DNA of 64,000 bases, taken from NCBI RefSeq assembly GCF_964355755.1, contig NC_092678.1, positions 24,693,365 through 24,757,364 on the forward strand, read 5' to 3'. The position numbers were made by a program, and so were the translations under genes. Of the stretch, positions 3,001 to 57,482 are shown one piece after another. The notes beneath the pieces were generated by a model, which worked only from the letters and a program-made list of their open reading frames with translations, made no database searches and was not told the origin of the DNA. The stretch is from Antedon mediterranea. Its lineage: Eukaryota; Animalia; Echinodermata. Every line of letters begins with the position of its first letter. Position 1 is the first letter of the stretch.

Positions 3001-6000
3001 TGATTTATATAAATGATCAAATCAGGTACATTATTGTTGATGACTCAATTTGGTGCCATGAGCATTTTGTTGATGGAGACTAGCGCATATAAGTTTATTG
3101 TCATAAGTTGACATACATTTGGAACAAACATGTTTTTTAAATTTGCATCGTTCCCTGACCCTAGTATAGTATGCTAACATGATGAAAGTTGCAACCCTAC
3201 TCTTGAAGACACTGTTGGATGTTTGCTGAGTTTGAATGGCATCTCACAAGAGATGACATCACTAATGATTTAAAGTCCAATGTAACCTAGCCCTAAAGAT
3301 AGGAGCCTAAAGGCTTCAAACATTTCGAACAAAAAACAAATTCCAACGTTACGAGAAAGGACCGATCAAATGTTTCTAAAAAACATCAACATAGAAGAAT
3401 TCCAATGTTACAAGCCCTCAGGATGCGGGCTTAAGACACAATCCAGCCTAAAGGTGTGCACATCAAAAGTACCAAAAACCAGGGCTTCAAAGGGCACACA
3501 TCAAAAGTGCCAAAAACATCAACAAAATGAAATTCCATTGTTGTGATCATACAAGAAAGCACCCAGCCTAAAGGCACACAAACTTTTTATACATTTTTTC
3601 AAACATTCATCCCTGAAAAACAATATTTGCTATACAGTAAGATTACTAAACTGAACAAAGCAACCTAGCCTGGGGAGGCTGACTTAGAGCAAGATAATTC
3701 CATGAATGTTACCCTGTAAAATTCCACAGTTAAATAATTGACTTACTAAGCTTACATTTAGTGGGAAAAAACACAATGCCAGTTTTTGGTATCTTCTTCA
3801 GCAATGTGATAACAAATTTGGCAGAACTAAACAATGTGTTTGAATGCATTGAAATGTTGGTTCCCTGAACTCTGACAGCAACATAAGAACGGTTACGCAA
3901 ATAATTTTACAAATCAGAAGTGATGGATTATCCAAATTGTCTCTTACGATTGGTCAAATTGTGTCGCTAGTTTGAACCAATCTTTACCATAATAATCAAT
4001 GCATATATGTATACCTATTTTGTAAGCCAAGAAATGAATGCTTTACTTTACTCAATAAGCATTTTACAAACACAATGACTTAACACCTAACTTCCTTTAG
4101 GGTAACACTTACTACTAATCTGTTTCAAGATCTACTCAAATGCAATTAGCTAGTACAAGTCAAGTTTAAAAACCCAGGTTGAATTGAAGAAATATGACTA
4201 GCAAAATGTCACTTATCACAAACAGAACCTTTTCAAGTAAAAGTATTAAATAACCAATGTGAAACCTAACTACTTCATCAAAAGCAAAAAGCATATTAAT
4301 AAAGAATTGATAAATGAGAATAAAAGTTGGAAAAAAGTTTGCAACACAAAGAAGCTATTATTATAAGTAAAGTTCGGCTGACTTTAGATGTTGTGTTAAG
4401 TTTCATCTTAACCCCTTCAGGCACGTCCCAGTTTCTTTAGTAGAAGTTGTTTTAGATACTTTTATCCTGGTATTGTATCAAAGTTCAACTACTTCAAATA
4501 TAAATCCATAAATGCCATTAACTTTACGTTGTGAATGTCATAAAAGAAACAAATTTATAATTTTGACAGGTATACACAATTATCAAAAATACTTTGAAGT
4601 GAATCAAACGTATTTGAATAAATTGAACAATATTTCAAAAGATCAAATAATCATTGCTAAGGTAAACTTCCTTAACTTTTACTGGTTTCACATAAAAGCA
4701 AAAATTACATGACAAATGAAATTCAATTTACTATATTCCCAAAATGTCAGTATCACATCTAAGCCTCTCTACTGTATTTCTAAGCCTCTCCATCATTTCA
4801 CTTTTTAACAATAATTAATTATCACTTTGGAAAACACTAGCTGTCGACAATGGTGTTTATGGTTACAAAGAATAAAGGATAGATTTGGATGAGCAAAAAT
4901 GAATGCTGCTTAGAGCTCATTTTGAGATAATTTATTGTTCAGGTACATTTACTGTATGTATATTAAAAAATGTTTAAAAAATCCAGGAGAATTGGAATAG
5001 CAATAGTTTGAACATCAACCTCAACAATTTAAAAATTAAACTTCTAAATCTACCTGGATAATACAGTAATACTAGACAGGGAAACCACATCATGGACGTT
5101 GTCTATACACACTCAAAATATAGACCCACAAATGACTAACATGACAAAAAAGAAATTTGAATCATTTTATAAGCATACTGTAGCATCCGTACAAACTGTA
5201 TAATTATAGAATGAGACAATATAAAGACCGCAGAATCACACTTGACCATTCAGTCGTTGACCCGCGATACCTGACATTAATATGTTTTGCTTAATGTTCC
5301 TGTTGCTAGTACTTATTATTTTTCTTATGAGCAATATTAGGAAATCGTTAAAACTATAAGATTAAGTTATATAAAACCCAATAATAAACCACTATACGGT
5401 TAAACAAGTACCACTAATAGTCTAGTACTCATTATTTTTCTTATGAGCAATATTAGGAAATCGTTAAAACTATTGTATTAAGTTATAATATAAAATCCAG
5501 TGATAGCCACAATAATAGTGAACCAGTACCAGCTACTTAAGAGAGTACTTTACACAATGCAATACCTCTTCTAAAAAGTTGGTTACTTAATTTTAAAGTC
5601 ATTTTTCTCCTTGTGTTTTGAACGACAAGCTACAAAAATCTATTTAGCACTTTTCTTTTTCAAATGTTGATGGAGCTCATCACAATAAACAATGCTTTTT
5701 GATATCATCAAACAATAATCAACTGTTAACAGGCAACAGAATAAATTTGTTGATTTTTATCAATTTTGTTACAACATTTCTTTTGTCATGGACAAGTTCT
5801 TTGTTGATTGTATTCTACCGAAAATGACAAAAACAGCAATCCAATCCAAAAAAAGGAATTTGATTGAGAAAATCTTCTATATTGTCACAAAACCTTAGTA
5901 ATGAGAAAGCATGTTTCACTTAATCTAATTGTATGAATTATATTACCAAATAATGGGCCGTTCCAATGAACACAATACCATCATTGATAGATCTATTACA

Positions 6001-6060
6001 AAGTTAGCAAGCAACTTAAAATACACAAACCAACAGTGGTGTTGGTAGTCTATGAGTGCC

Positions 6061-6229
6061 GCTTACCTGGATAAACCAACATAAGCCTCTCTCTCCGACG
6101 AGAGGTAAACATTACGAAAAGAAGAACATTAATAACATTAATTTTTCCCCACCCCCGTCGGATAATGGATCAGTCCGCCACCAGTACGCCCTCAAGTGAG
6201 ACACACCCACTTATCATCGTCATCATTTC
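6061..6229. repeat. DIRS inverted terminal repeat (3' end of the element)
   Basis: Exact reverse complement of 11209-11377 by manual comparison. It is preceded by a terminal extension at 6022-6060. Confidence 0.95.
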
Positions 6230-6265
6230 TCAAGACCACCTGCCTGAGGGGACGGTAGGGAGGGC

Positions 6266-6363
6266 GTTTATCCAGGTAAGCGGCACTCATAGACTACCAA
6301 CACCACTGTTGGTTTGTGTAGTCTATATCGTGCCTAGCTTACCTGGATAAACCAACATAAGCC
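6266..6363. other. DIRS internal complementary region (ICR)
   Basis: 6266-6320 is the reverse complement of the left terminus (from 6022) and 6319-6363 is the reverse complement of the right terminus (to 11395). The two halves overlap at TA 6319-6320. Confidence 0.95.
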
Positions 6364-6426
6364 AGTGTAGCACCGGACTAGAGTGTAGTCGGAGGCGGGA
6401 GGCAAGGTAAACATTGTCATACATAC

Positions 6427-9294
6427 CTAGTGTCTGGGCTTCAAGATTGAAGCTGCCACCGTAGACTGGTTTGCGGAGGTATCCGACAGGTAGTGGGATG
6501 TGAAGGTGGACTGTGATCGCCACCATGCCGCTTGCAGGATGTCTGGAAGGGGCACCCCAGCAAACAGCGCCCATGAAGCGGCTATGCCACGCACTTGGTG
6601 CATATGTGCCGGAGGAGGCGTATTTGTGGAGTCGTAACCAGCCCGGATGGCTGCCACGACCCAGTTTGCCAGCGTCGACCGAGCAGCCGGTCGGAAGGGT
6701 GCAACTGTCGATATGAACAGATGTGACGCTGAGACCCGAATGGACTCTGTGCGTTTGATGTAAAACTTTAGTGCCCGCACCGGGCACCAAAGTCTGTCTT
6801 CCTCAACCCCTGAATATGCAGCAATGGTGGGAATAAACACAGTCGGCGGCGAGAAGTTCAATGTCTGAGATTTTGCAAGGAAATCTTTTCTAAAAACCAA
6901 CCGCGCGCCACCCCGTTCAAACCTGATGTGCCCTGGCTCCAGAGAAAGAGCATGCAGTTCACCTCTGCGCTTGCACGAGGCTAGTGCAATCAAAAAGGCA
7001 GTTTTGAGAGTCAGGTTGTAAAGTGATGCCCTACTCAGGGGCTCGAAGGGTGGACGCATAAGAGCGGCTAGGACGACATTGACGTCCCAACGTGGAATCA
7101 GGGCCTTAGTAGGAGGCCGTTCTCGAAACATCCCGCGAAGCAAACTGGAAATTGCAGGGGATGAAGAGATGGTCGAGCCGTCTTTAAAATTCGGAATTAC
7201 TGCAGCCAAGGCAGACCGATAGCCGGATACGGTGCGAACCTGCAGACCTGACTCAAACAGGTAATGTAGGAAAGCGCAGACCTGGCCCAAAGTCACTTTC
7301 ATAGGGTCGGTCTTCTGGCGCTTGCACCATTCGAAAAAGTGTTTTAATCGGCTATTGTAGACAGCAAGAGTGGATTCCCGTCGGGATTTCGCCGCGAGGG
7401 CGGCCGGACCATCTGGAATGCCTGAGTCTCTGAAACGATCCCTGACAATGGCCATACAGTCAGGTCGAGGGATATGAGGTTCGGTAGAGCAAACCGAGCT
7501 CGGCCCTGCGTCAGCAAGTCGTTCCGAATCGGAAGACGTAACGGCTGATCGTACAGAAGGCCTAGAAGCAGTGGAAACCACGGCTGCCTGGGCCAATACG
7601 GCGCTATTAGTAGGACTCGGCATTGATGGCGCTGAATGTGCGTCAGGACCAGTGGCAGTATTGAAATCGGTGGAAAGGCATATGCCCAAAGGTTGTCCCA
7701 TGGTATGGACAGGGCATCCACCGCCCACGCATGTGCATCCCGATATCGACTGCAGAACGTCGGGAGCTGCGTGTTGCCTGACGTCGCAAACAGATCTACA
7801 TGGGGCCGCCCAAAGTGGTTGAAGATTTGGGTGGCGATTATTGGAAGGAGACGCCATTCCGTAGGACGTAGAAGTGGACGGGACAGTGCGTCCGCCACTA
7901 TGTTCAGACGACCCGCAATGTGGGCCGCTGACAGTTGGATGTTGTGTCTTATACACCACATTAGCAACGTCCACGTGTGGCAACATAGCGTGGGGGACCG
8001 TGTACCCCCTTGCCTGTTTATGTATGCCACGACGGTTGTGTTGTCGGAATTGACGAGAACATGGCGATTCGCCAGATGGGGAAGAAGAGCCTCCAACGAG
8101 CGCTCGACTGCCCAAAGTTCGAGCAGGTTGATGTGGGCGCGCGTCTCCTCGGGCGACCAGAGGCCGGAGACGCGAATGTCCGGAGACGGTATGTGACCGC
8201 CCCAGCCTACCTCGGATGCGTCCGTTTCCACACGGACATCCGGAATTGACCTTTGTATAGGTGTGCCCACAAGTAACCTGTCTTCCACGAGCCACCATTC
8301 GAGATGCGAGATAATGAACGCATTCGTTGGAACCACTTTGTGTAGAGAGTCCGATCTTGGGCGGTATGCTGCCAGAAGGTGCAGATGTAGAGGCCGCATC
8401 CTTAACCGGCAGAACGGAACGAGGGCGACGAAGCTGGCCAGTGACCCCAAGGTGCGTAGCCAGTCGTACGCCGTCGGAGCCTGAGCATTGATAAGATGCA
8501 GCACTGCAGTTCTTGCCTTGGCCACACGCTCGATGGATGGGCACGCACGGCCCGTAACCAAATTTATTTGGGCTCCGAGATACAGAGGGTTCTGAGAAGG
8601 GAGAAGACATGACTTCTCCTCGTTTATTATGAACCCTGCTTGTTCCGTCACGAGGCGGACAAAAGATAAGCTGCTCAGCAGCTGGTCCCTGGACTGGGCC
8701 ACGATCAACCAATCGTCTAAGTACATGAAAACTCTGATGCCGTGTTGATGAAAGAACGCCGCCAGGGTTCTCACTAGACGAGTAAACACTCGTGGGGCCG
8801 TTGAGAGGCCGAACGGCAGAGCTACGAATTGGTATACCTGATCGTGAATGCGGAAGCGCAGCCAACTCTGGTGTTCTTGCGCAATAGGCACGTGAAAGTA
8901 CGCGTCTTTCAAGTCTATTGTGGCTGCCCAGTCCCCTCGTCTTAGCCCCAACAGGATAGATGAGACAGTCTCCATCCTGAACCTGCGGGGCCGGATGTAC
9001 CGCTTGTTCAGACTTTTGAGGTTTAGGATGGGTCGCCAATCGCCCGATTTTTTCTGGGCGAGGAAAACGGTGGATTCGTGTCCCGGGATCGTAAGTTGTT
9101 CTTTTTGAACATGCACCACAGCTCCTTTCTGGAGCAGTGCTTCGAGGCCCGTCATGAGCGCTTGACTCTTTTCCGGCTCTGACGGAATCCTCGTGTGCCG
9201 GGCACCTCCGCTCACCGGAGGGCTCGAGAATTCGATACGATACCCGTGTGTCACGGTGGAGAGAACCCATCTGTCTGTGGTCAGGGTCTCCCAA
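6427..9294 (-). CDS. DIRS tyrosine recombinase (domain in the C-terminal ~330 aa) with a long N-terminal extension overlapping pol
   Basis: SAM-like region (STLAVYNSRLKHFFEWC...RTVSGYRSAL) and catalytic residues R (KRRGELHAL), HxxR (HQVR), W and Y (WWRSQSTFTSHY). The frame is open back to the gag stop at 9367. Confidence 0.93.
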   Translation of the reverse strand: MGDPDHRQMGSLHRDTRVSYRILEPSGERRCPAHEDSVRAGKESSAHDGPRSTAPERSCGACSKRTTYDPGTRIHRFPRPEKIGRLATHPKPQKSEQAVHPAPQVQDGDCLIYPVGAKTRGLGSHNRLERRVLSRAYCARTPELAALPHSRSGIPIRSSAVRPLNGPTSVYSSSENPGGVLSSTRHQSFHVLRRLVDRGPVQGPAAEQLIFCPPRDGTSRVHNKRGEVMSSPFSEPSVSRSPNKFGYGPCVPIHRACGQGKNCSAASYQCSGSDGVRLATHLGVTGQLRRPRSVLPVKDAASTSAPSGSIPPKIGLSTQSGSNECVHYLASRMVARGRQVTCGHTYTKVNSGCPCGNGRIRGRLGRSHTVSGHSRLRPLVARGDARPHQPARTLGSRALVGGSSSPSGESPCSRQFRQHNRRGIHKQARGYTVPHAMLPHVDVANVVYKTQHPTVSGPHCGSSEHSGGRTVPSTSTSYGMASPSNNRHPNLQPLWAAPCRSVCDVRQHAAPDVLQSISGCTCVGGGCPVHTMGQPLGICLSTDFNTATGPDAHSAPSMPSPTNSAVLAQAAVVSTASRPSVRSAVTSSDSERLADAGPSSVCSTEPHIPRPDCMAIVRDRFRDSGIPDGPAALAAKSRRESTLAVYNSRLKHFFEWCKRQKTDPMKVTLGQVCAFLHYLFESGLQVRTVSGYRSALAAVIPNFKDGSTISSSPAISSLLRGMFRERPPTKALIPRWDVNVVLAALMRPPFEPLSRASLYNLTLKTAFLIALASCKRRGELHALSLEPGHIRFERGGARLVFRKDFLAKSQTLNFSPPTVFIPTIAAYSGVEEDRLWCPVRALKFYIKRTESIRVSASHLFISTVAPFRPAARSTLANWVVAAIRAGYDSTNTPPPAHMHQVRGIAASWALFAGVPLPDILQAAWWRSQSTFTSHYLSDTSANQSTVAASILKPRH

Positions 9295-9326
9295 ACCCGT
9301 GAAAACCGTTTCAAGCGACCCCCCAC
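7344..9326 (-). CDS. pol: DIRS reverse transcriptase / RNase H / Dam-like N6-adenine methyltransferase polyprotein
   Basis: RT motifs VGGRL, WRPILNLK, IDLKDAYFHVPI, LPFGLSTAP and YLDD; RNase H motifs TDAS..GWG, INLLEL, SDNTT and ADALSR; MT motifs VDLFA, DAL and YAFPP. The frame is open from 9377, and the listed start is GTG, so the true start is uncertain. Confidence 0.95.
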   Translation of the reverse strand: MGGRLKRFSRVWETLTTDRWVLSTVTHGYRIEFSSPPVSGGARHTRIPSEPEKSQALMTGLEALLQKGAVVHVQKEQLTIPGHESTVFLAQKKSGDWRPILNLKSLNKRYIRPRRFRMETVSSILLGLRRGDWAATIDLKDAYFHVPIAQEHQSWLRFRIHDQVYQFVALPFGLSTAPRVFTRLVRTLAAFFHQHGIRVFMYLDDWLIVAQSRDQLLSSLSFVRLVTEQAGFIINEEKSCLLPSQNPLYLGAQINLVTGRACPSIERVAKARTAVLHLINAQAPTAYDWLRTLGSLASFVALVPFCRLRMRPLHLHLLAAYRPRSDSLHKVVPTNAFIISHLEWWLVEDRLLVGTPIQRSIPDVRVETDASEVGWGGHIPSPDIRVSGLWSPEETRAHINLLELWAVERSLEALLPHLANRHVLVNSDNTTVVAYINRQGGTRSPTLCCHTWTLLMWCIRHNIQLSAAHIAGRLNIVADALSRPLLRPTEWRLLPIIATQIFNHFGRPHVDLFATSGNTQLPTFCSRYRDAHAWAVDALSIPWDNLWAYAFPPISILPLVLTHIQRHQCRVLLIAPYWPRQPWFPLLLGLLYDQPLRLPIRNDLLTQGRARFALPNLISLDLTVWPLSGIVSETQAFQMVRPPSRRNPDGNPLLLSTIAD

Positions 9327-9366
9327 CTGCCCGCCCTCGCTTGGAGGGACGGGCGTCCCCGGGCCG

Positions 9367-10896
9367 TCACCGGCGCTTCACATTATAATACCGGCGACCA
9401 CTTCTGTTGGTGGCGCCTTTGCCACCCCTATTTCGCATTCCGCGAGGGGGGTGTGAAGCCTGTCTTGATGTAGAAGCCTGACTTTGCATAGGCTGAGCCG
9501 GTGGCGGCGGGGGAGGCTGCATCTGCTGAGGAGCAGCAGGGACAGGCGGCGGTCGTGCGGCTGTCCTTGAGCGTGAATTGCTAGCTCGGCGTTTTTGCGG
9601 GAAGCGCGCTCTTGTCTCCCGACGAGCTTCCCTCTCACGAGCCCATTTATCCTCCTTCTGTGAGAAGGAGCCAAAGAACAAGTCCTGCGCCCCGAAGGAG
9701 TCAGACGTAGTAAACCTACGGAAATCGGTCGGTGCGATGTCAGTTGCACCCAAGACGTTAACGCGACGGGCCGCGGCCGCAGATAATGAGATCGTTGCCT
9801 GTTGATCAACAACCAGGCCCATGATCTGCTGTAGTAGAGCTATCACGTCCGAATCGCCCTGAGGCGGATGTTCTGGATCAGCCAGAAAGGATAGCAAGTA
9901 CCCGGCCATAGAGGCGGCTCTAAGCGTCTCGCGTGCGGCCCTGTCGACGGACGTAAGGACATCCTCTGTCCGGGATTCCGAAGGCTTCAAAAAATTAGTC
10001 CTGGACGGGTCCAGGTTCTGGTCCTCACGGACCCGTTCCTTCGCTGCCTCCGGGACGCTCGGCGCCGCGATGTACAGTTCGAATTGTTTCTGCGGCACCG
10101 GAAAAGCCGATGACAGGCTATAAGGCATAGGCCTACGAATCTTGGACTCCTTAGCGATCAGCTCCACACGTTCCACAAGTTCTGGATCGAGAGGCGTAAC
10201 CGGGCACGAAGATACCTTCTTAAAGGGCGTGCGTACGCCAAAAGTGGAAAACCGCTTAGACGAAGGAGTATGCTTAGGCTCTCGATACGTGAAATCGACG
10301 CCGAGAAAGGACAGCACCGCGGGGACCGTCCGCATAACTAGCGCCTGCAGACCTTCCTCCCCTGGCCCGGCCTGCTCCCGTAAGCTATCTCTATCATCGT
10401 CAGAGAGCGAGGCCATCGTCCTGTCACTATCGTAATCCCTTTGCCGGACGGACGAACCATCGAAAAACGAGGTCTGCTGTGGGCCAACATCAATGTATGG
10501 AATATGGGGAGGAGGTCTAATCTGAGAGGGTACCTCAGGCTCATCCCTCGGCAGAGCTCTCACAGCTGCAACAATGGCTTGCAGTAACCCCGGAGAAATC
10601 TCATTCACCCCCGGAACCGCAGAGGCCGCAGCCGGTGCAGGCATATCTGGAAGGCTAACTTCCGGCGCGACGGCAGGAGGGCCTGCCGTATCGGCGGTAC
10701 CCACCTCCGGAGGTGGTACAGCTTCCGTGCGCTCCTTAGGCTTAGGGAGCGATTTGAACTTGGACGGTGTCCAGCGGACACAAACATCGCACGGCGACAA
10801 CTCGGTACACGTGCGGCAATGTATGCACTCCAAGTGGCGGTCCCACTTCACGGTAGAGCGGGGACCCCTACATTTAACACACTCCTGCTTAGGCAT
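9367..10896 (-). CDS. gag: DIRS Gag-like protein (509 aa)
   Basis: First ORF of the element. N-terminal Cys/His cluster (CVKC...HLECIHCRTC...CDVC), helical central region, and a Pro/Arg-rich basic C-terminus. Confidence 0.88.
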   Translation of the reverse strand: MPKQECVKCRGPRSTVKWDRHLECIHCRTCTELSPCDVCVRWTPSKFKSLPKPKERTEAVPPPEVGTADTAGPPAVAPEVSLPDMPAPAAASAVPGVNEISPGLLQAIVAAVRALPRDEPEVPSQIRPPPHIPYIDVGPQQTSFFDGSSVRQRDYDSDRTMASLSDDDRDSLREQAGPGEEGLQALVMRTVPAVLSFLGVDFTYREPKHTPSSKRFSTFGVRTPFKKVSSCPVTPLDPELVERVELIAKESKIRRPMPYSLSSAFPVPQKQFELYIAAPSVPEAAKERVREDQNLDPSRTNFLKPSESRTEDVLTSVDRAARETLRAASMAGYLLSFLADPEHPPQGDSDVIALLQQIMGLVVDQQATISLSAAAARRVNVLGATDIAPTDFRRFTTSDSFGAQDLFFGSFSQKEDKWAREREARRETRARFPQKRRASNSRSRTAARPPPVPAAPQQMQPPPPPPAQPMQSQASTSRQASHPPRGMRNRGGKGATNRSGRRYYNVKRR

Positions 10897-11208
10897 GGTG
10901 ATCTAACAGACCTACTTCTACCCACTAGCCTAACGAACAACAAAAGATCTTCCAGTATTTCTATCCAGGTGAAACACACTGGATAACGGCTTACAACGCT
11001 AAATTTTAACTCCTGGCAACTAGCCAAGGGTAACGATTCTAAACGTATCCAACCACAAGATAACGATCTACTACACTTAGCTTCGTTTTCTTGCTCTATT
11101 CTTCTCTTCCAGTCTACAGTATAAAAGTCTTTATCGCAAATTCCTCAGGAATTCCAGGAATGTGTTCAGAAAAAGACGTACGTACACAACGACGTTACGA
11201 AAAGAAAT

Positions 11209-11377
11209 GAAATGATGACGATGATAAGTGGGTGTGTCTCACTTGAGGGCGTACTGGTGGCGGACTGATCCATTATCCGACGGGGGTGGGGAAAAATTAA
11301 TGTTATTAATGTTCTTCTTTTCGTAATGTTTACCTCTCGTCGGAGAGAGAGGCTTATGTTGGTTTATCCAGGTAAGC
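11209..11377. repeat. DIRS inverted terminal repeat (5' end of the element)
   Basis: Exact reverse complement of 6061-6229, followed by the terminus TAGGCACGATATAGACTA (ends 11395). Confidence 0.95.
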
Positions 11378-11834
11378 TAGGCACGATATAGACTAGCTTT
11401 TATCCATCCATACTAAGTAACACCGGAGGCTTGAAGTAAGCGTCTACCCAGATATTCAAGGGAACTCCTTTAGTTACTCAGTATGAAATGGGTTATTTAT
11501 AGTACAAATGTGAATGAAGAAGACTTGTGCAAGTGCCAACACTGTTGGGAATGCTATATTCTCACCAGTTCCTTATGAATGAATGTAATGTTACCTTCAG
11601 TATTCGCTAATAAGCCACCTAGTCGAAATAACTTGCAATAAAATTTGAAACCAAGTCAATTGAAATGCAAATGTATGTTTAAAATAGAAAATAATAATAT
11701 TTCCCAACCTTTTTATGAACTAGGGATTTCATCTAAAGTTTATAGTTTTTATTATGGGAAGTAATAGGCTTATAGTAAGATTATCCAGGTAAGCTATAGC
11801 CACAAAAGTGACATTAATATATTCTTATAGGAGA

Positions 11835-12155
11835 AACTGTGAAATGGTTGCAAGATGGGTTGCTGTGAAATGGTTGCGAGATGGGTTGATCTGAAATGGT
11901 TGCAAGATGGGTTGCTGTGAAATGGTTGTGAGATGGGTTGCTGTGAAATAGTTGCAAGATGAGTTGCTGTGAAATGGTTGCAAGATGGGTTGATATGAAA
12001 TGGTTGCAAGATTAGTTGCTATGAAATGGTTGCAAGACGGGTTGCTGTGAAATGGTTAAAAGATGAGTTGCTGAGAAACGGTTGCAAGACGGGTTGCTGT
12101 AAAACGGTTGCGAGACGGGTTGCTGTGAAATGGTTGCGAGATGGGTTGCTGAGAA
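11835..12155. repeat. 26-bp minisatellite, about 12 copies
   Basis: Unit GAAATGGTTGCAAGATGGGTTGCTGT. Confidence 0.9.
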
Positions 12156-37700: not shown

Positions 37701-40700
37701 CTGGGTGTGAAATGACATGGATCAGGAGGTAGAAACAAACAGGGATGGTTTTCAAAAGGTCGCCTATCAAGAGAGTAATAAAACAGTTTACTACCCCAAA
37801 CAAGGGTGCCAGTGTGATGCATATGTACTTTTTTAAAGGTTCTTTTAGCAGGATTCAACTCCAGGGTTTTATTTATTTTTTTCTTTGTGCCCCTATATCT
37901 TTGCAGAACCTTAATTTATGGGGACCCTGCCAACATATTTTATCAAATTTAATATTGATGAGATAGCAGGCATAGGGTGATGTGTCAAAAGCCAAACCCA
38001 TTCAGACTTGCAGATCAACACCCTGTAAATCAAGTGTACAAGGTGTATAGCACATAGAAGGAGTGGTGGACAAGTAAAAAGTACCAGTAAAGGCTAAATA
38101 ATGTGAATCAAGTGTACAAGGTGAACAGCACATAGAAGGAGTGGTGGACAAGTAAAAAGTACCAGTAAAGGCTAAATAATGTGAAAACTAATTTTGTTTG
38201 TATATTTCTATGACCCTTAAAAGCTCTGTCAAAAAATGGACATGATGATGTAATATCAATACCATATTAGGGAATATCACTACCCTATTTGGGCAAATCA
38301 TAATTTTTTTTTAGTCAAATGGCTAATAAGAAGAAATTAAATCTTAAATGGTCATAGAGTAATTAACTCCAGATGGTACAAGAACATACTATGTTCAGTT
38401 TTAATGTTCTAACAACATAGATCCTGCCGACATTCAAAACACATTTAATCTAACTGTATTCTGAACCTCAAGAGAAGTAAAACTGCTAAAATCGTTGTGT
38501 CCATCAAAATCAAGAGAACACACAGGGGGGTAAATCAAATCACCACGGGGCAACAAAGTGTAAAAATAATGGAGGAAACGGGAAATACTTAATTATAACA
38601 AAACAAGAAAATTAAAAGAGAAAGTGAAAATAACATAATAAAAGTGATCAAAGAGATGAGAAGATTTAAGCAGCAGTAAACTTTAAGTTATTCAACTTTG
38701 TATTATTGTGCCTTATGATGTTGAATGATGAGTAAAATCATTCCTGAGGCGCTGTCTGGTGACGACTTTCTTGAAGAGAATAACTTGTCATTAACTAGTA
38801 GTAGCAACCCATGCATATTTTCATGGAATTTCAGAACAAGTAGTACAATTCTATGCACAATTAACAGGTTTTTTTTATTTTGTTTTTTATATTCATGTAA
38901 ACACTTTACCCTTGGAATGGTGACACAACTGTGGTATGGTCAAACACACACAAAAAAAACCAAAAACAAATAAATTAAACTACAGTAAATAAAAATGGCT
39001 ATAGAGTAAAATGAAGTGCTTAAATGAGGTAAGGTGTTCCCCCTCTGTCTGAATTCATCTATGACCTGTATACAACTCTATGAAATGAGTATTTGATTGA
39101 TTGGGAAGGAAATCAAATCTGTACTTTGCCTTGGTATTATGATTTCACTGACCAGGGACCACCATTAACATCAGAAAGATCATTTCATTAGCAATAGATT
39201 GAAACAACATTGGCAGGTTGAGGTGAGCTCTGTGGTATTAAAGCTACATTTCTATATGTCATAAATTTGTAGTTGATCTGGTAGACACGTCTTCTCCAAT
39301 TATTAAATATATATTCTACATGACAGTGTTTGAAATATCTGTTCTCCTGGACAGCTAATAAAAGTCACCAATCACACAGCAGTCACCAAAGACCTATCTA
39401 TCACCAATAGTTAGCTTTATTAGGGTCAGAGTGTACAAAGGCCAGGTATTGGTAATATGGTGTATAAATTTTAACAGCTTTCTGACCACAGTAAACTAAA
39501 ATCATTGAATAGGACATAACATAAGTTATTAGAGGCATTCCTCCTAAAAAGGAGCCCTAAATTTAAAGATCTTAAATTACAGTTATTTTGAGGTAAAGAT
39601 CTGTCTACTCTATCAAACTAGTTTTTGACAAAAAAAGTGTGATGTGCCTAAATATGGTATTGGTAGTGATATACCCAAATATGGTAGTGATATGACATCG
39701 TCTTGTCCATATGGGTACATCACATAGATTTTGATAGTGTAGACAGGGCCTAACATTTATCTTTCCAATTTTTGATCAAGTGAATAAAGATTAAAATGAC
39801 ATTAAAATGGCATATTCAATAACAAAACATTATTTTTTCAGGGGGAAATTTATCTCTTGGTAAAAGTGATATCAAATTTATTTTTCTGGAGAATCTCTAA
39901 GTACCATCAAGGGTCCACTTCCTTTAAGTAAGACAGTTACTTATTATTAGTCATTTTGTAAAAAGTGGTAACTAGCAAGTTCAAGGTTTTGCCGTTTTAG
40001 ATTTTACATCGTTGTTGCTCTCGTGTGATTAAAACTTTAAAGCACACATCAAGAAAGTCAGGCACCTTAAAGGAAGCTACTATAAATGTCTGTTAGTCAC
40101 CAGAAAAAAAAAGTTAAGTTCAGTGGTAAGATTTGAACTAAGACATCCGACACCATGTTAACCACAACAATGATTGCTATGCTGGTACAGTATGTACAAT
40201 TGAACAACAATAATTGCTATGCTAGTACAGTACTGTACAATTGAACAACAATGATTGCTATGCTAGTACAGTACTGTACAATTGAACAACAATGATTGCT
40301 ATGCTAGTACAGTACTGTACAATTGAACAACAATGATTGCTATGCTAGTACAGTACTGTACAATTGAACAACAATGATTGCTATGCTAGTACAGTACTGT
40401 ACAATTGAACAACAATGATTGCTATGCTAGTACAGTACTGTACAATTGAACAACAATGATTGCTATGCTAGTACAGTATGTACAATGATTGCTATGCTAG
40501 TACAGTACTGTACAATGATTGCTATGCTAGTACAGTACTGTACAATTGAACAACAATGATTGCTATGCTGGTACAGTACTGTACAATGATTGCTATGCTG
40601 GTACAGTACTGTACAATGATTGCTATGCTGGTACAGTACTGTACAATGATTGCTATGCTGGTACAGTACTGTACAATGATTGCTATGCTGGTACAGTACT

Positions 40701-43700
40701 GTACAATGATTGCTATGCTGGTACAGTACTGTACAATGATTGCTATGCTAGTACAGTACTGTACAATGATTGCTATGCTAGTACAGTACTGTACAATGAT
40801 TGCTATGCTAGTACAGTACTGTACAATGATTGCTATGCTGGTACAGTACTGTACAATGATTGCTATGCTGGTACAGTACTGTACAATGATTGCTATGCTA
40901 GTACAGTACTGTACAATGATTGCTATGCTAGTACAGTACTGTACAATGATTGCTATGCTGGTACAGTACTGTACAATGATTGCTATGCTGGTACAGTACT
41001 GTACAATGATTGCTATGCTAGTACAGTACTGTACAATGATTGCTATGCTAGTACAGTACTGTACAATGATTGCTATGCTAGTACAGTACTGTACAATGAT
41101 TGCTATGCTAGTACAGTACTGTACAATGATTGCTATGCTGGTACAGTACTGTACAATGATTGCTATGCTGGTACAGTACTGTACAATGATTGCTATGCTG
41201 GTACAGTACTGTACAATGATTGCTATGCTAGTACAGTACTGTACAATGATTGCTATGCTAGTACAGTACTGTACAATGATTGCTATGCTAGTACAGTACT
41301 GTACAATGATTGCTATGCTAGTACAGTACTGTACAATGATTGCTATGCTGGTACAGTACTGTACAATGATTGCTATGCTGGTACAGTACTGTACAATGAT
41401 TGCTATGCTGGTACAGTACTGTACAATGATTGCTATGCTGGTACAGTACTGTACAATGATTGCTATGCTGGTACAGTACTGTACAATGATTGCTATGCTG
41501 GTACAGTACTGTACAATGATTGCTATGCTAGTACAGTACTGTACAATGATTGCTATGCTGGTACAGTACTGTACAATGATTGCTATGCTGGTACAGTACT
41601 GTACAATGATTGCTATGCTGGTACAGTACTGTACAATGATTGCTATGCTGGTACAGTACTGTACAATGATTGCTATGCTGGTACAGTACTGTACAATGAT
41701 TGCTATGCTAGTACAGTACTGTACAATGATTGCTATGCTGGTACAGTACTGTACAATGATTGCTATGCTGGTACAGTACTGTACAATGATTGCTATGCTG
41801 GTACAGTACTGTACAATGATTGCTATGCTGGTACAGTACTGTACAATGATTGCTATGCTGGTACAGTACTGTACAATGATTGCTATGCTGGTACAGTACT
41901 GTACAATGATTGCTATGCTGGTACAGTACTGTACAATGATTGCTATGCTAGTACAGTACTGTACAATGATTGCTATGCGGTACAGTACTGTACAATGATT
42001 GCTATGCTGGTACAGTACTGTACAATGATTGCTATGCTGGTACAGTACTGTACAATGATTGCTATGCTGGTACAGTACTGTACAATGATTGCTATGCTAG
42101 TACAGTACTGTACAATGATTGCTATGCTGGTACAGTACTGTACAATGATTGCTATGCTGGTACAGTACTGTACAATGATTGCTATGCTGGTACAGTACTG
42201 TACAATGATTGCTATGCTAGTACAGTACTGTACAATGATTGCTATGCTGGTACAGTACTGTACAATGATTGCTATGCTGGTACAGTACTGTACAATGATT
42301 GCTATGCTGGTACAGTACTGTACAATGATTGCTATGCTGGTACAGTACTGTACAATGATTGCTATGCTAGTACAGTACTGTACAATGATTGCTATGCTGG
42401 TACAGTACTGTACAATGATTGCTATGCTGGTACAGTACTGTACAATGATTGCTATGCTGGTACAGTACTGTACAATGATTGCTATGCTGGTACAGTACTG
42501 TACAATGATTGCTATGCTGGTACAGTACTGTACAATGATTGCTATGCTGGTACAGTACTGTACAATGATTGCTATGCTGGTACAGTACTGTACAATGATT
42601 GCTATGCTAGTACAGTACTGTACAATGATTGCTATGCTGGTACAGTACTGTACAATGATTGCTATGCTGGTACAGTACTGTACAATGATTGCTATGCTAG
42701 TACAGTACTGTACAATGATTGCTATGCTAGTACAGTACTGTACAATGATTGCTATGCTGGTACAGTACTGTACAATGATTGCTATGCTAGTACAGTACTG
42801 TACAATGATTGCTATGCTAGTACAGTACTGTACAATGATTGCTATGCTAGTACAGTACTGTACAATGATTGCTATGCTAGTACAGTACTGTACAATGATT
42901 GCTATGCTAGTACAGTACTGTACAATGATTGCTATGCTAGTACAGTACTGTACAATTGAACTGAGAACTGTGCAAAAAAGGGCTAGCATGTTGACTGCTA
43001 ATATATCATCCAAGGACTGGAATTTGATTTGAACCAGGAACTTCAATAAAAGGCCAGCACGTTAACTGCTAATAGTTTACTACCATTTCACCCAAGGACT
43101 GTGGAAGTGGATTTGAACTGTGCAATAAAAGGCCATTATGTTAACTACTAATATATCATCCATGAACTTGAATTGGATTTAAACTAGGCCAGCATGTTAG
43201 CTGATACTAGTTCACATCCATTCCATCCAAGGACCAGAATTGGATTTGAACTAGGAACTTCAATAAAAGACCAGAATGTTAACTACTAATAGTTCACTTC
43301 CATTTCACCCAAGGACTTTGGAAGTGAATTTTAACTGTGGACAGCATTTTAACTGTCTGCTAATATATTATCGAAGGACCGAAATTGGATTTGAACCAGG
43401 AACTTAAATAAAAGACAAGCATGTTTACTGCCAATCTAAGTTTTCCACAGAGATAAAAATAGCAACAGTAGATATGCCCTTTATAGCATAATTGAGATTG
43501 ACATGTTATGACAACTTCAGCATCTGCAGTGCAGTAGTTGGTCATGCTTGAATGAACTCATATGCCCTTGGGTTTATAGTATTGCTGGAACAAAAGAACA
43601 CGCTGGAGATTCTAGTCTTTCCAATCACCAAAAGATTTAATGCCCTACTTTTCTGAAAACATTTTTCATACACTGGGACTGTAGCAATAATTTTAAAATA

Positions 43701-49700: not shown

Positions 49701-52700
49701 AAGTTAAACGTACAGAGTCAATGAATTCCCTGTTGACACACGTGTGCAGTCTTTGTAAGAAGCTGTCCAATTGCATCTTCATGTTAACATTTATCGTTGT
49801 CACTTCTTCTTCTTCAGGCTCAACAGGTTCTAAAATTTACAGCAAAGTGTTCCAATTAAACCAATTACAATCAAATTCTAGTACATTATAAATTTACTTC
49901 AATTATTCTTTCCCAATTGTCAGGAAAAGTGTAAACAGGGGGATTTACCTTCAACTTCAACCTCAAGATTGTCCACTAATTCATTGGTCTCTTCTATTGT
50001 TTCATCCTTCCCTTCATTCACTAATTCTTCTTCTGGCAATTCAACTAAAAGACATTGGGAATGAGATGAATAGAAGAATGCCTATACTAATAGATAAACT
50101 ATTAAGCTGTCTACACTATCAAACTAGTTTGACAAAAAAAGTGTGATGTGCCCAAATATGGTAATGATATGCCCAACTATGGTAGTGATATGCCCAACTA
50201 TGGTAGTGATATGCCCAACTATGGTAGTGATATGCCCAACTATGGTAGTGATATGCCCAACTATGGTAGTGATATGCCCAACTATGGTAGTGATATGCCC
50301 AAATATGATAGTGATATGACATCATTTTGTTGTCACATAAAGTTTGATAGTGTAGACAGCGCTTTATGATGGTTAAGATTTAAATCTATTTTACCTGATT
50401 CAACCTTATCAATTTCTTCTTCGTTCTGATCTCCTGGGGCAACCTGTTTCGAATTGTCCTTAAAAAGTATCTGGAAAAAAAAGAGAAATGTCTCGTTTTA
50501 GTAATGCCTTTGAAATAGAGCATGTATGGTTACAATGGTAAATGTTATTTTTGCGTCTCTACGAGTGTACTTACTGCAGGAACGATAGTTCGAAGGTCAG
50601 TCAAGTTTTCATGGAATGTTCTCGTCTCCTCATCTTCCCACAACGATGTCTCAAAATCAAATTCTCCGTTGGATCTCATTCCACCAAGCATACCAATTAA
50701 ATCATTTTCTCGTTCTTCTCTCAATTTTTCTGAAATAAAAACATTTAAAACATAATGTAACTTAAATTTCCCTGCGTGGGTATGGTGCATGTTTTCTGGA
50801 TGGTACTGTAACTTAAGCTACATTTAGGCTTAAACAACCATTTATCATATTCAAACTAAAATAAAAATTAATTACCATCTTCTGGAAGGTCAGGCATCTC
50901 CAGGTCAAGCAGATCCTAAAATATAAAAACAAATATAACTGTAATACTGTAGAACTGTCTTAACACTGGACATCCATGAGCTGGCATAATATAACTGATA
51001 CACTAGAACTCTCCACTGGACATCCATGGGCTGGCATAATATAACTGATACACTAGAACTCTCCACTGGACATCCATGGGCTGGCATAATATAACTGATA
51101 CACTAGAACTCTCTTAACACTGGACATCCATGGGCTGGCATAATATAACTGATACACTAGAACTCTCCACTGGACATCCATGAGCTGGCATAATATAACT
51201 GATACACTAGAACTCTCCACTGGACATCCATGGGCTGGCATAATATAACTGATACACTAGAACTCTCCACTGGACATCCATGAGCTGGCATAATATAACC
51301 GATACACTAGAACTCTCCACTGGACATCCATGAGCTGGCATAATATAACTGATACACTAGAACTCTCCACTGGACATCCATGGGCTGGCATAATATAACT
51401 GATACACTAGAACTCTCCACTGGACATCCATGGGCTGGCATAATATAACTGATACACTAGAACTCTCCACTGGACATCCATGAGCTGGCATAATATAACT
51501 GATACACTAGAACTCTCCACTGGACATCCATGAGCTGGCATAATATAACTGATACACTAGAACTCTCCACTGGACATCCATGGGCTGGCATAATATAACT
51601 GATACACTAGAACTCTCCACTGGACATCCATGGGCTGGCATAATATAACTGATACACTAGAACTCTCCACTGGACATCCATGAGCTGGCATAATATAACT
51701 GATACACTAGAACTCTCCACTGGACATCCATGAGCTGGCATAATATAACTGATACACTAGAACTCTCCACTGGACATCCATGGGCTGGCATAACATAACT
51801 GATACACTAGAACTCTCCACTGGACATCCATGGGCTGGCATAATATAACTGATACACTAGAACTCTCCACTGGACATCCATGAGCTGGCATAAAATAACT
51901 GATACACTAGAACTCTCCACTGGACATCCATGAGCTGGCATAATAATATAACTGATACACTAGAACTCTCCACTGGACATCCATGGGCTGGCATAATATA
52001 ACTGATACACTAGAACTCTCCACTGGACATCCATGGGCTGGCATAATATAACTGATACACTAGAACTCTCCACTGGACATCCATGAGCTGGCATAATATA
52101 ACTGATACACTAGAACTCTCCACTGGACATCCATGGGCTGGCATAATATAACTGATACACTAGAACTCTCCACTGGACATCCATGGGCTGGCCTAATATA
52201 ACTGATACACTAGAACTCTCTTAACACTGGACATCCATGGGCTGGCATAATATAACTGATACACTAGAACTCTCCACTGGACATCCATGAGCTGGCATAA
52301 TATAACTGATACACTAGAACTCTCCACTGGACATCCATGGGCTGGCATAATATAACTGATACACTAGAACTCTCCACTGGACATCCATGGGCTGGCATAA
52401 TATAACTGATACACTAGAACTCTCCACTGGACATCCATGAGCTGGCATAATATAACTGATACACTAGAACTCTCCACTGGACATCCATGAGCTGGCATAA
52501 TATAACTGTTACACTAGAACTCTCCTAACACTGGACATCCATGAGCTGGCATAATATAACTGATACACTAGAACTCTCCACTGGACATCCATGAGCTGGC
52601 ATAATATAACTGATACACTAGAACTCTCCACTGGACATCCATGGGCTGGCCTAATATAACTGATACACTAGAACTCTCTTAACACTGGACATCCATGAGC

Positions 52701-55700
52701 TGGCATAATATAACTGATACACTAGAACTCTCTTAACACTGGACATCCATGAGCTGGCATAATATAACTGATACACTAGAACTCTCTTAACACTGGACAT
52801 CCATGAGCTGGCATAATATAACTGTTACACTAGAACTCTCTTAACACTGGACATCCATGAGCTGGCCTAATACGTCTAGTTTTCCAGAAATTCTGGTATT
52901 CTGAATGTGTGTTTCTAATGGTAAAACGTATTTGGGAACTTTGGACCTCAAGAAAAGTCTGGTTTTGAGTTGGGCGAGTCAACTGTATTTACCATACAGT
53001 AAAGTGTCCTAATACAAACAACCCTTGAATAAATATAAATTATTACAGGACTCTATGCGATGTTAATGTTGAATACATACCGAGAGATTAGTTGTATTAA
53101 CCAACAGTTTCTGATAAATCACTTGAGCCTCTTCTAAGTTTTTCCTTCTTTCCTCACTAAGCTCACCCTTAGTCTGAAATCAAGTATAGGTGTAGGTAGG
53201 TGAACTATGCATAGGTCAAAGATCGTTGTATATTCAAAGCTCCCTCTTAGTGCAGTTTGTGATGACTTCTTACCTGTAATATTTTTCTATTCTGCTTTTC
53301 CCTATTCTGTAAATCCTTATGTTGTCTAACTAGGTGCTTAGCTAGTATAGTATAGTGGTCTTTTAACAAATTACGATATAAAGATTGCACCTGACTTGAA
53401 AACACTTCACTCGTTGGTAATTTTAAACCAAACTTCTCCACTAACATTCTGCAATTGGAAAAGAATACAAAATTATACTAACTTATTTGTTACAAAACTG
53501 AGAAGTGACTGTAGTTGATTGGCTGAAATTATGCATGCAAAATGTACATGAGAATCAAAGTACAGTAATACATATCTCATATATTCAAACACATTTTCAT
53601 GGACATGATGATGTCATACTACTACTATATTTGGCACATCCCATTTTTTTATCACATAAATTTGCAACTATAGACAGAGCTTTAGCTTATAATATTACCT
53701 ATACTAGATTTGAGTATATGTTGTAAATGTTTACACATATAAGTTGACATAGATTTAGACTGTGGAATTACAGTGTTATTTAAATAAAGCTTAATAAACA
53801 TGATAATATTACTCTATAGAGTTGTGTCAAACCTGTTTTTCCTTGGTACTAATCCAGCATAGTCCTCACCACAGTGTTTTACAAAGCTGATGATGATTGA
53901 GATATGCGCATGATTTTCACGATCTGATTTCAAGATTGATGAAAGTAAAATGTTTAGGACCGGTAAGCCTTCCTTGTCTGTGAATATTCCATGCACAATT
54001 AACTAAAATAAAGAAGACAAAGTTAAGAAATGTGCAATTTACCTTATTTGGGATGATTATGGTTTAATAATGTAGTGTACTGAACTGAAATGCTTTATTT
54101 CTTCACTATCATAATAAATTAACAATAGAAATTCATCTTAAAGATTGGAAAATATTATTACGATAAAAACATATAAGTATATAATATAAAACAAAAATTC
54201 ATATACAGAGTACACACGCAATGTTGCACAAAAAGCGGTAGGGAGGTTTCAAGTTGTAATATAGTGGATTTAAGACATTAACAATTTTGGAGAGAATTAA
54301 AAAGACTTAATTGTTATTACCTCAGACAGTAGACGAATCTCAACTCGTACTTTGCTGTCAAAAATAACCTAAAAAATATAAGAATATGTTTATTTACCAA
54401 AAAAGATTATTGTAGTAAGCAAGGCATTTTTCATTGTTCGAGACACATTCAGTTAAATTTAATTTATTCCGGATTTTACAATACAAACAAAACAACACAT
54501 ATGCTAGACTCAGGGGACTCCAACAGTGAACTTAACCACTTTTGATGGGACATCCCAGCCAGCAGTGACATTAGGTTTGATTCTCCAACAAATATATTAC
54601 AACATGTTTTACTTTTAGAAAGCGTAACAGTTATAATTAGAGTAGAATTTTTTAACTTGGAAATTAAATAACAATACACATGTTAAAGATTGTTTAATGA
54701 TACGTACCGGCTGGGAATCTTTTTCCTCTTTCTTTGGTGTCTGCGGCAAATTCTTCTGGAAGTTTTGAAGAAGCTGCGGTGCGAAATCTGCAAAGCGTTG
54801 ATGAAGCGTTGACGAGATGCTAATTGCTAACGGAACGTCGGACATCTTAAGTTTAGCTTCATAGATGGCGCTTGCGACCTCGCCAATGTACTTGGTCAAA
54901 TTTAATCCTTTCAGTTCATTCACTAAAGAATCACGATTCTGATCTCCCATCATTTTCTATCAAATATAATTGTTTAATATTTTAAAGTGAAGTGGAACGT
55001 ACTTAAGAATTTTGCTTTAGTTCTTCTTCTTTTCCTATCTTTATATCTGAAGTTGTACTAAACTAAACCAATATGAAGTAAGAACTAAGATCCCAATGAC
55101 AGGAACTAAGCATTTAATACAGATGTAAGGGTACACAATGAGAATGTATTCTTATTATATACTGCCATGGACGATTGTAAAAAAATAGATCTTACAAGCT
55201 TTTTAATAAAAGCAGTGTTCTTCTTGAGACTTGAGTCCAATTTATGGAACACATCTTCATCCGGTCGACCACCTGGAAAATAAATCAGTATTTCAAGAAT
55301 TCAGTAAGAGTTAAATATAGTATACATAGATAATGATAATAATTTTTAGCTTCAATGAAAACATGATACAGTATGTATTTTGTCAGGATTGATCACTGCC
55401 AGCTAACAGAGTAGTAAATGTACCAACAATCAAAGCTTACTGCAGTAATCAGTTGACACCTACCTGCTGCCTTTAAGTTTTCTTCTCTCATTTTCATTTT
55501 ATTTCTAATCCTCTCTTTTACTTCGGTTTCAATTTCTTTAGCTTGTTTCTAACATGAGAAAACCAAACATATTGTTGACTGTATAAGACCTAATTATAAA
55601 GTTTTCCATCTAATAATGTAAACACATATTATGCAACATAAACTGCTTCTCCCTCCTAAGAACTTACCTGTTCTTCTTCTTCTCTTATTCTGGCATCTTC

Positions 55701-56992
55701 TTCTTCTTTCTTTTTTGCATCTACAGCTGCTTCCTTTTCCTACAAAAATAATCAAATTAGACTGTAAATTACATCAAATACACTTGTGCATAATTTTATC
55801 TATATTTATTTATTCAAATTCTAATCAGAAATTTAAGAAACCAACTCAACAAACTGAAATTAATTTAAAATTGGATGCTACAACTTACTTTAATTTCTTC
55901 TATTGGTGGAGGTTTGGTTTGGCTGGCAATCTTGTCAATTGGTTCATTCTTGTCCTTGTTTCCTTCTTTTCTTCCTACCACCTTAGTATCTGATTTGTTA
56001 GATGTTTTCTTTGTTTGTTTAATATCACTTTTCTTTTTCTCATTCTCCTCTTTCGTAGCAACATCTCGTTTTCTGTTATCACTTCTTCTGTTTTCTTTAC
56101 TGAATACTTCGGTCTTCTTTCCGGTATCTTTTGCGAGATCTCTTGAAGGACTTTTATCCTTTCTTCCAAAATGTTTAGTCTTATATTCTGGCTTGCTAGC
56201 TAAGCCGGCTTTATCGGCATCTTCCTTAGCTCGTCCTTTATCGGCATCTTCCTTAGCTCGTCCTTTATCGGCATCTTCCTTAGCTCGTCCTTTATCGTCA
56301 TCATTACGAGTGCCGCGACTCCCCCGTGCAGGCCTCTCAGATCTTTGAGCTGAATAGCTTTTAGGGCTTTTTCCCTTGGTGTCTTTACCGAGTGAAGCTT
56401 TGATTTCACTAACAGGTTGAGTAACTGGTAAATTCCTAGGAACTATGACTGTTTTCACTGGTTCTATAACTGTGGTCTGGTTCTGCCGAAACTTAGCATT
56501 GTTGTTTGCGTTCAGTGTATCTGGTGAATTGGAAGGTACTGGTGAGGGTTCATCACTAAATTCTGATGGGCTGATAGGTGTTGCACTCTTTAGTGGAATA
56601 TACACTTCTGCACCACCCGCTTCACACAAGCCAGAAGATACATTGTCATCTATTGTTTTCTCGTCTGCTGTTACAGCCTCATGTTGTTCTCCTACATCAT
56701 TGGTACTTTTAATGTCTTTGTCAATGACATCATTTACAACATTTTTTGGAGTACTGTTTGCGCTACATTCTACGTCAGAATCTTTGACATGAGTCAGAAT
56801 TGTTGGGTCTTTTGTCATCACAGTTTTATCTTCATTTTTACTTCCATCATCTACAAGCTCTGTCATGTTTTCGGTCATCTGCACTTCTTCTTCATTTTCT
56901 TTTTGATCTAGACCTCTACAAGGTTTTTCACTTTCGTGCTCAACAACTAGGCCCAAGTCATCTTCAACCTTTTCTTTTTCATTCTTATCCAT
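34569..56992 (-). CDS. UPF2: Regulator of nonsense transcripts 2 (UPF2), spliced, 32 coding exons
   Basis: Motifs LDSSLKKNTAFIKKL, LNLTKYIGEVASAI, LWEDEETRTFHENLTDLR, LHTCVNREFID, DFRHHNIDMTCALLEVCGRFLYR, FRIRLVCTLLDTCGQFFDRGS, RKGNKQQFK and C-terminal YHPKGAPDSD. GT-AG exons: 56992-55889, 55739-55668, 55548-55464, 55272-55196, 54956-54708, 54368-54321, 54002-53833, 53448-53274, 53173-53081, 50915-50876, 50729-50575, 50470-50395, 50044-49949, 49829-49714, 49520-49435, 49324-49216, 48947-48890, 48774-48719, 48628-48512, 48399-48298, 48094-47969, 47799-47638, 47361-47223, 46806-46670, 46417-46231, 45915-45829, 45736-45612, 45513-45451, 45139-45044, 44691-44452, 44118-44040, 34702-34569. Confidence 0.96.
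39598..39750. mobile_element. Copy of the same MITE family
   Basis: CTGTCTACTCTATCAAACT...TTTGATAGTGTAGACAG. Partial copies also lie at about 438-535, 35422-35482, 38221-38301, 49633-49684 and 53598-53681. Confidence 0.8.
40168..42956. repeat. 30-bp minisatellite array (about 90 units, with 39-bp variants at the 5' end)
   Basis: Unit ACAATGATTGCTATGCTRGTACAGTACTGT, located in the last UPF2 intron. Confidence 0.98.
42957..43435. repeat. Degenerate tandem of SINE-head-like units of about 60-80 bp
   Basis: Recurring GGATTTGAAC (reverse-complement B-box)...AGGCCAGCAYGTTAACT..TAATA...CCAAGGAC. Confidence 0.65.
44868..45021. mobile_element. Copy of the same MITE family
   Basis: GCTGTCAACACTATCAAACT...AGTTTGATAGTGTAGACAGAGCT. 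Confidence 0.8.
46027..46204. repeat. 45-bp perfect tandem repeat, 4 copies
   Basis: Unit GTAGCCGCTGAACGTCGTCGTTTTTGGATACTTAGTCTCAGACAC. Confidence 0.95.
50105..50363. mobile_element. Harbinger-like MITE with an internal 21-bp tandem expansion
   Basis: TIR AGC(TC)TGTCTACACTATCAAACT with TTA on both sides. The internal unit GATATGCCCAACTATGGTAGT occurs about 7-8 times. Confidence 0.85.
50955..52870. repeat. 50-bp minisatellite (about 38 units)
   Basis: Unit TGGACATCCATGRGCTGGCATAATATAACTGATACACTAGAACTCTCCAC, located in a UPF2 intron. Confidence 0.98.
55889..56992 (-). CDS. UPF2: UPF2 first coding exon (368 codons, low complexity)
   Basis: Long ORF ending in AAA|GTAAGT, in phase 0 with the next Glu/Lys-rich exon. 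The acceptor is at 57068-57069. Confidence 0.8.
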
Positions 56993-57482
56993 GTTTCAGT
57001 ACATTTTTCCTTTTTCATTCATTAAAAATCTTTCACTTTACACAGTTCTTTCTCTTTTTTTGTCATTCTGTAATTCAAAAATTGTCAAGAAAACTTTAAC
57101 AAAATAATGATTTATAAACCCCTGGTGGGCCAAAAAGGAAGATCTATGATGTAGGCCAAGACCACTCCGACCTACAGGCCTAGACTGTAGAGTTCTTCCT
57201 GTCCGGCCCTAGGCCTAGCTAGAGAGGGCTATACCCCTGTCTATTGGTGGAGGGAGAGAGGCCAGCAACAGGCTACTCCTCCTTTTACTTGTTGTTGTAA
57301 CCGTCCTAGACTGAGGCTAGCTAGGTAGGCCTACTATTATAGCTAGGAAATATAGGCCTACTAACTAGGGCCTACTAGGACTTAGGTTGGAGAGGGCCAG
57401 CCTGGTACATGTAAATATTAACATGCTCTAGGCCCAGGCCTAGCCATAGTAGGAAATGTAACTCTTATTTATGCTTTCTTAC

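Follow-up and report, generated by a model that had tools for sequence, protein, structure and literature searches.

We analysed a 64,000-nt stretch of the genome of the echinoderm Antedon mediterranea (NC_092678.1, positions 24,693,365 to 24,757,364; hereafter the window), whose minus strand carries an intact DIRS1 retrotransposon. Inverted terminal repeats (ITRs), an internal complementary region (ICR) matching both ends, an open reading frame (ORF) for a reverse transcriptase (RT) together with RNase H, and a tyrosine recombinase (YR) domain that ends an ORF overlapping pol are all present (Table 1). The two halves of the ICR overlap each other at 6319-6325. A Pfam search of the gag-like ORF gave no match. 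The first ~630 codons of the YR frame are rich in Ser, Arg, Gly and Pro and are overprinted on pol, and residues about 659-962 carry SAM-like and phage-integrase-type domains, with Pfam matches to Phage_int_SAM and Phage_integrase that lie below the cut-off (E 4e-4 to 0.016). What we take to be the R, HxxR and Y motifs of tyrosine recombinases are visible in the translation. The RT frame matches RVT_1 (E 6e-23) and RT_RNaseH (E 0.004, under the curated cut-off). No Pfam match to a methyltransferase-like (MT) domain was found after RNase H in this element; YAFPP, presumably a motif of that domain, is present in the translation.

The gag-like ORF and YR lie in one frame, split by a single TGA at 9369-9367, which gives 509 + 1 + 979 = 1489 aa. 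A sequence-only reading of this DNA had proposed that readthrough of this stop joins gag to the recombinase, and its description of the junction is accurate: 24 stop-free codons (RPGDARPSKRGRAGGGSLETVFTG) follow the stop, and the context is CGG-TGA-CGG, followed by a 12-nt spacer (9366-9355) and then a GC hairpin. That reading missed the RT/RNase H frame (9377-7344), which is +1 to gag and opens at the same stop. RT needs a non-standard entry, because a TGA at 9380-9378 closes its frame upstream and because no AUG occurs in it until 9155, 57 codons beyond VGGRL, where RT begins in most homologues. The deepest contigs of two sequencing studies of one organism cross the junction; they carry 3 and 5 differences, all of them outside the junction itself. 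One of the runs behind these contigs may be the window's own source.

Table 1. Features of the DIRS1-type element (window coordinates; a point in the strand column means unstranded)
Feature	Position	Strand	Remarks
Whole DIRS1-type retrotransposon	6020..11394	-	From repeat structure; loose contig ends at 6018/6022 and 11393/11394; ends approximate
Left ITR, 169 nt	11209..11377	.	100% complementary to the right ITR
Right ITR	6061..6229	.	169-nt arm, 100% complementary to the left ITR
ICR	6266..6363	.	One half matches the right end (6017-6076), the other the left end (11351-11395)
gag-like ORF, 509 aa	9370..10896	-	ATG at 10896; N-terminus Cys/His-rich, tail basic and of low complexity
TGA in RT (+1) frame	9378..9380	-	Leaves only the final three codons of gag, the stop and the 43-nt linker for RT-frame entry
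Last gag codon, CGG	9370..9372	-	Peptidyl-site (P-site) codon at the stop; fits the NXX pattern
gag stop, TGA then CGG	9367..9369	-	Type II readthrough context; proposed three-way switch
RT/RNase H(/MT) frame, 674 codons from the gag stop	7344..9368	-	+1 to gag; VGGRL starts at 9326; first AUG at 9155
YR frame, 979 codons	6427..9366	-	Same frame as gag; first AUG at 9270
GC hairpin, 10 bp, 12 nt after the stop	9329..9354	-	One bulged U, 5-nt loop, -18.5 kcal/mol; candidate role

Stop context and last gag codon in related families

Relatives were collected with a query alignment of 59 RT proteins, made up of the window and 58 of 120 listed proteins; among the matches listed, the closest named ones are from echinoderms, at 48-55% identity. 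The best 80 of 373 loci in metagenome contigs, which may be collapsed copies, were kept. Three loci that start too near the junction (L046, L049 and L077) were left out, and 78 loci including the window remain, with a median pairwise RT identity of 42%. gag lies in the YR frame in 70 of them, in the RT frame in 5 and in the third frame in none, with 3 loci left unassigned. Clustering at 80% yielded families, 65 of which were classified: in 61/65 a single stop separates gag from YR within a common frame, and gag is in the RT frame in 4/65. Counts weighted by clade use a quick tree of 29 clades with one vote each, in which two rows with broken RT frames form long branches. Scans and pattern searches of viral contigs revealed no relative.

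The gag stop of the 61 families is TGA in 50, TAG in 10 and TAA in one, whereas TAA closes YR in 19 of 34 of the same elements (p 7e-10). TGA-C or TAG-G is present at 43/61 gag stops, compared with 6/34 YR ends and 7/40 RT ends, and this leaky context stays significant when counted by clade (21/29). TGA-CTA occurs in 16 of the 50 TGA families, and TAG-G in 8 of the 10 TAG families. CTA or CGG after TGA occurs in 17/50, the window being the sole CGG case, and this narrower signal weakens to a worst-case p of 0.09 after clade correction. Asp-Tyr, the footprint that TGA-CTA leaves in the RT frame, is found in 11 of 59 further database RT proteins unlike those of the loci (0.9 in shuffles). Readthrough of type II is described as UGA-CGG or UGA-CUA with a 3' stem, and that of type III as UAG-G with a pseudoknot (PMC3159437). 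Judged by their nucleotides, the gag stop contexts of the families match types II and III. The single in-frame stop in a leaky context lies far beyond chance across relatives. The sequence-only reading had suggested aligning related families to look for conserved UGA-C and covarying stems. TGA-C or TAG-G recurs, the exact UGA-CGG is found in 1 of 50 TGA families, and the linkers are too divergent for a test of covariation. Other stops or frameshifts between gag and YR in related copies were named there as evidence against readthrough; the single in-frame stop of 61 families agrees with the proposal, but four families show a mirror layout, which is described below.

The codon before the stop is biased as well. 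The last gag codon has the form NXX in 44/61 families, compared with 26% in the gag tail (p 1e-13), and none of the other last 30 gag positions exceeds 38% NXX. A codon of the antizyme P-site set, given as UCC, UUU, CCC, GUU or AUU before UGA (PMC1874602), precedes the stop in 22/61 families versus 11%. The bias is specific among synonymous codons, in that the last codon is TCC in 7/7 cases of Ser and CCC in 6/6 cases of Pro, and TCC, CCC and TTT are enriched at the last gag codon only. When counted by clade, both NXX (20/29) and TCC/TTT/CCC/GTT/ATT/CTT (9.7/29) stay significant.

As a separate observation, five loci (L015, L024, L037, L051 and L064) share CCC-TAG-GG(G/A)-TGC-CC just past the stop, with AAA before the stop in L064. 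This motif reads PRGAHPT-like in the RT frame, and several database proteins carry PKGAHPT, which implies a variant with TAA-G.

Open downstream frames

The linkers of the 61 families have 30 distinct lengths, from 16 to 412 nt. Over their 1289 codons the RT frame holds 1 stop where 38 are expected by shuffling, and the third frame holds 46 where 39 are expected. All 61 families are stop-free in the YR frame up to the first YR AUG, where about 305 stops would be expected in RT and 37 in the linkers; zero frame-0 stops in linkers hold partly by definition, and the non-circular fact is the long same-frame ORF upstream. Of 47 families with an intact RT frame, 44 have no stop at all in the YR frame over the 600 RT codons; the remaining three hold all of the 42 stops observed, compared with 1263 expected. 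By these counts the YR frame appears to be kept open without a start of its own, as a readthrough extension should be.

The RT frame is open for 11 nt upstream of the gag stop in the window and for 101 nt or more in other families, where its openness arises because the gag tail lacks hydrophobic codons. An earlier RT entry upstream of the stop was considered and rejected: the last 66 codons hold 18 stops compared with 21 expected, for which the composition of the tail suffices. By its sequence, ORF2 lies in +1, open from the stop and without an AUG, as the downstream frame of antizyme does.

Two linkers are unusually long, at 412 nt in L079 and 504 nt in L042, and both coding frames are still open in them. 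The L079 linker carries an internal duplication.

A proposed three-way switch and its rivals

We propose that the gag stop is a three-way switch yielding Gag, Gag-YR by readthrough and Gag-RT by a +1 shift. For the full scheme our confidence is slightly better than even; of its parts, readthrough at the gag stop is likely to occur, and a +1 shift at this stop is moderately probable. Most ribosomes would stop and release Gag (509 aa), some would read through in frame into a Gag-linker-recombinase of 1489 aa, and some would slip +1 at the stop into Gag-RT/RNase H of 1183 aa. Both enzymes would presumably be packaged through the Gag fusions. The overprinted stretch of about 600 codons would form a tether, stop-free so that readthrough ribosomes can reach the recombinase. 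The comparison of families supports the readthrough to Gag-linker-YR put forward in the sequence-only reading well, through the 61/65 layout, the stop context and the open frame, but that account was incomplete in overlooking the entry into RT. If the switch is real, one RNA would yield all three proteins through one control codon, the stop-free state of about 600 codons over pol would be accounted for, and the 61 families would form a natural library of recoding contexts.

Several results, together with the partly definitional openness of frame 0 in the linkers, weigh against the switch. TGA-C or TAG-G is lacking in 18/61 families and NXX in 17/61. The xAA codons make up 16 of the 44 NXX codons and may stem from the effect that 5' adenines are known to have on readthrough rather than from slippage, and NXX minus AA weakens to a worst-case p of 0.06 by clade. 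The P-site codon of the window itself, CGG, is outside known antizyme sites and would be expected to re-pair poorly in the +1 frame. Substitutions in the linkers show no codon-position periodicity (0.45/0.41/0.47) and do not locate the switch. In the mirror layout (L042, L055/L057, L056 and L074), it is RT that follows gag in the same frame after one stop, and YR is in the -1 frame. A gag-UGA-pol junction from another retrotransposon, Tca2, gave no readthrough on its own in S. cerevisiae (PMC2194720).

The hairpin 3' of the stop adds to these points. It is kept in the minimum free energy and centroid folds of a larger 94-nt piece, and the exactly excised hairpin reaches z -4.3, but with bounds picked after the fact. 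In unbiased windows of this GC-rich stretch its stability compared with shuffles is ordinary (z -0.94 for 94 nt, z -0.91 for 47 nt, empirical p 0.37). Across families, stems 8-23 nt past the stop are strong (p <=0.05) in 12/61 compared with 42/365 background windows. The raw stability is higher downstream of the stop, and the composition-corrected excess is a trend (paired p 0.08, 0.16 and 0.08). The hairpin that the sequence-only reading made part of the signal exists, but its sequence is not conserved and its excess stability does not exceed this trend. We hold only tentatively, at somewhat below even confidence, that the window hairpin stimulates readthrough or the +1 shift. On the 5' side there is a weak structure excess, at 50-60 nt ahead of the stop in relatives and at 9430-9390 in the window (p 0.003, 0.03 and 0.07); a 5' hairpin was not accepted, these values being uncorrected for many windows.

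The rival that survives best, although we consider it unlikely, keeps readthrough for Gag-YR and has RT made by non-AUG reinitiation after termination, by a -2 shift or by an unseen splice. The readthrough contexts are indeed the strongest signal, the xAA codons suit readthrough, the CGG of the window is poor as a shift codon, and +1 and -2 shifts are indistinguishable from frame data. However, this route does not predict the synonymous specificity of TCC, CCC and TTT, enriched at the last codon only, nor an RT frame that is open across the linker from the stop, and an RT-frame AUG near the junction is present in only 15/61 families, with no AUG conserved.

Splicing is less probable still. It would make RT, YR or both, with TGAC and TAG-G serving as branch point or acceptor rather than as leaky stops, and it draws on the branch-point-like appearance of TGA-C and the acceptor-like appearance of TAG-G. 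The linkers are pyrimidine-rich and a crude acceptor score at the junction is slightly above background (p 0.03), which also counts against the three-way switch. Yet the first AG past the stop keeps to no one phase (18/22/10, p 0.11), 0 stops lie in the RT frame before this AG where 5.8 are expected, and AG stands directly before VGGRL in 10/61 families. Near the stop, donor-like sites are no denser than in the background (10/61 families), no acceptor position before YR is common to more than 4/40, and a splice that skips RT would not require 600 stop-free codons. Across families, no conserved splice donor or acceptor was found at the junction or before YR with our crude, hand-made scores, the donor scan covering sites near the stop rather than a distant donor in gag. 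In one clade (L020, L026 and L028), strong donor-like sites at linker +7 to +16 coincide with a conserved Val-Ser/Asn of the RT frame.

We give equally little credence to the view that RT and YR start at internal AUGs of their own, through leaky scanning or from subgenomic RNAs; the in-frame stop would then be a historical accident and the overlap the known long ORF overlap. It follows the conventional three-ORF annotation (PMC3266345, PMC3950715), the Tca2 junction is described as having a minor internal promoter (PMC2194720), and the window has an AUG (M638) just ahead of the YR domain. But of 40 families, 14 have M at the M638 column, 19 have L and 7 have V, so that this column appears to mark a hydrophobic residue rather than a start. 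The first YR-frame AUG is not conserved, its position ranging between codons 8 and 551, and the frame upstream of it is open; the first RT AUG of the window comes 57 codons after the conserved VGGRL. The biased stop context is left unexplained as well.

Very improbable, finally, is a weak stop that serves only the +1 shift to Gag-RT, with ribosomes arriving at YR via the RT frame or in some other way: antizyme, too, has kept UGA as its weak stop where the +1 shift occurs, but frame 0 lacks stops throughout linkers as long as 412 nt and up to the first AUG, and UGA-CUA in reporters raised readthrough at the expense of frameshifting (PMC9841425).

We are evenly divided on extending the three-way switch to DIRS1 elements generally, which would then make three essential proteins from one programmed stop, with the P-site codon and the 3' context setting the ratio and with some lineages having swapped the in-frame enzyme. 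The mirror families sit at four separate places on the quick tree. In these families the YR frame is open from 28-106 nt upstream of the gag stop, and the -1 slippery heptamer A AAA AAC is found only in L056, where the YR frame opens.

Comparison with known systems and further observations

The element shares with DIRS1-like elements the ITRs, the ICR, a right extension, gag, RT/RNase H and an overlapping YR ORF. The long pol/YR overlap of DIRS1-like elements (PMC3266345) and the single 4.5-kb mRNA with three overlapping ORFs of Dictyostelium DIRS-1 (PMC3950715) are already described; what is new here is the RT frame open from the same stop and the biased codon before it. Unlike these two accounts, whose available text is silent on the translation of ORF 2 and ORF 3, we suggest the leaky stop and the biased P-site codon as the route to both. 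Our literature search returned no description of recoding in DIRS, although the main DIRS reviews were beyond its reach and could mention the in-frame stop, and no natural case in which readthrough and a +1 shift at one stop both yield needed proteins. No translation mechanism is given in the available portions of PMC7192593, PMC5633606, PMC9210276, PMC6681497, PMC3783388, PMC8547959 and bioRxiv 2021.04.08.439009, and DIRS is unmentioned in those of a frameshifting review (PMC5009743).

The stop contexts are the same as those of type II and III readthrough in alphaviruses, Virgaviridae and murine leukemia virus, both types occurring among the relatives, and the window likewise has a stem 3' of the stop; its spacer is 12 nt rather than about 8, and its stem is short and local (PMC3159437). 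In contrast to viral readthrough, here a linker of 630 overprinted codons would precede the recombinase in the product, and the same stop is also where a second useful frame begins. Antizyme has in common with these families a weak UGA preceded by a P-site codon from one and the same set, a +1 ORF without AUG and, in some cases, a 3' structure (PMC1874602, PMC9841425). As those sources describe it, only the +1 product of antizyme is useful and the shift is polyamine-regulated, whereas here frame 0 would also give an essential enzyme. Tca2 of Candida albicans is, like the present element, a retrotransposon in which gag is followed by an in-frame UGA and a 3' structure is predicted, but it is a long terminal repeat (LTR) element and its frame runs on into pol (PMC2194720).

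The ends of the element read TAG (window 11395) and GTA (about 6021), not the NTT trinucleotide reported at 23/28 DIRS1 elements (PMC3266345). The contig depth over the termini (6000-6363 and 11278-11450) is about 10-40x that of the interior, which suggests many non-autonomous or related elements with common ends. A 16-nt piece matching the ITR core lies at 11779-11796, 400 nt outside the left end, and is adjoined by a 26-nt tandem array (11837-12155). Elsewhere in the window, a 376-codon stop-free frame with a 27-nt repeat and no Pfam match occupies 55865-56995 of the minus strand. There are also two homogeneous minisatellites, one at 40453-42956 (30 nt x 83 copies, 97%), which is partly palindromic and thereby gives long spurious ORFs, and one at 50964-52872 (50 nt x 38 copies, 96%).

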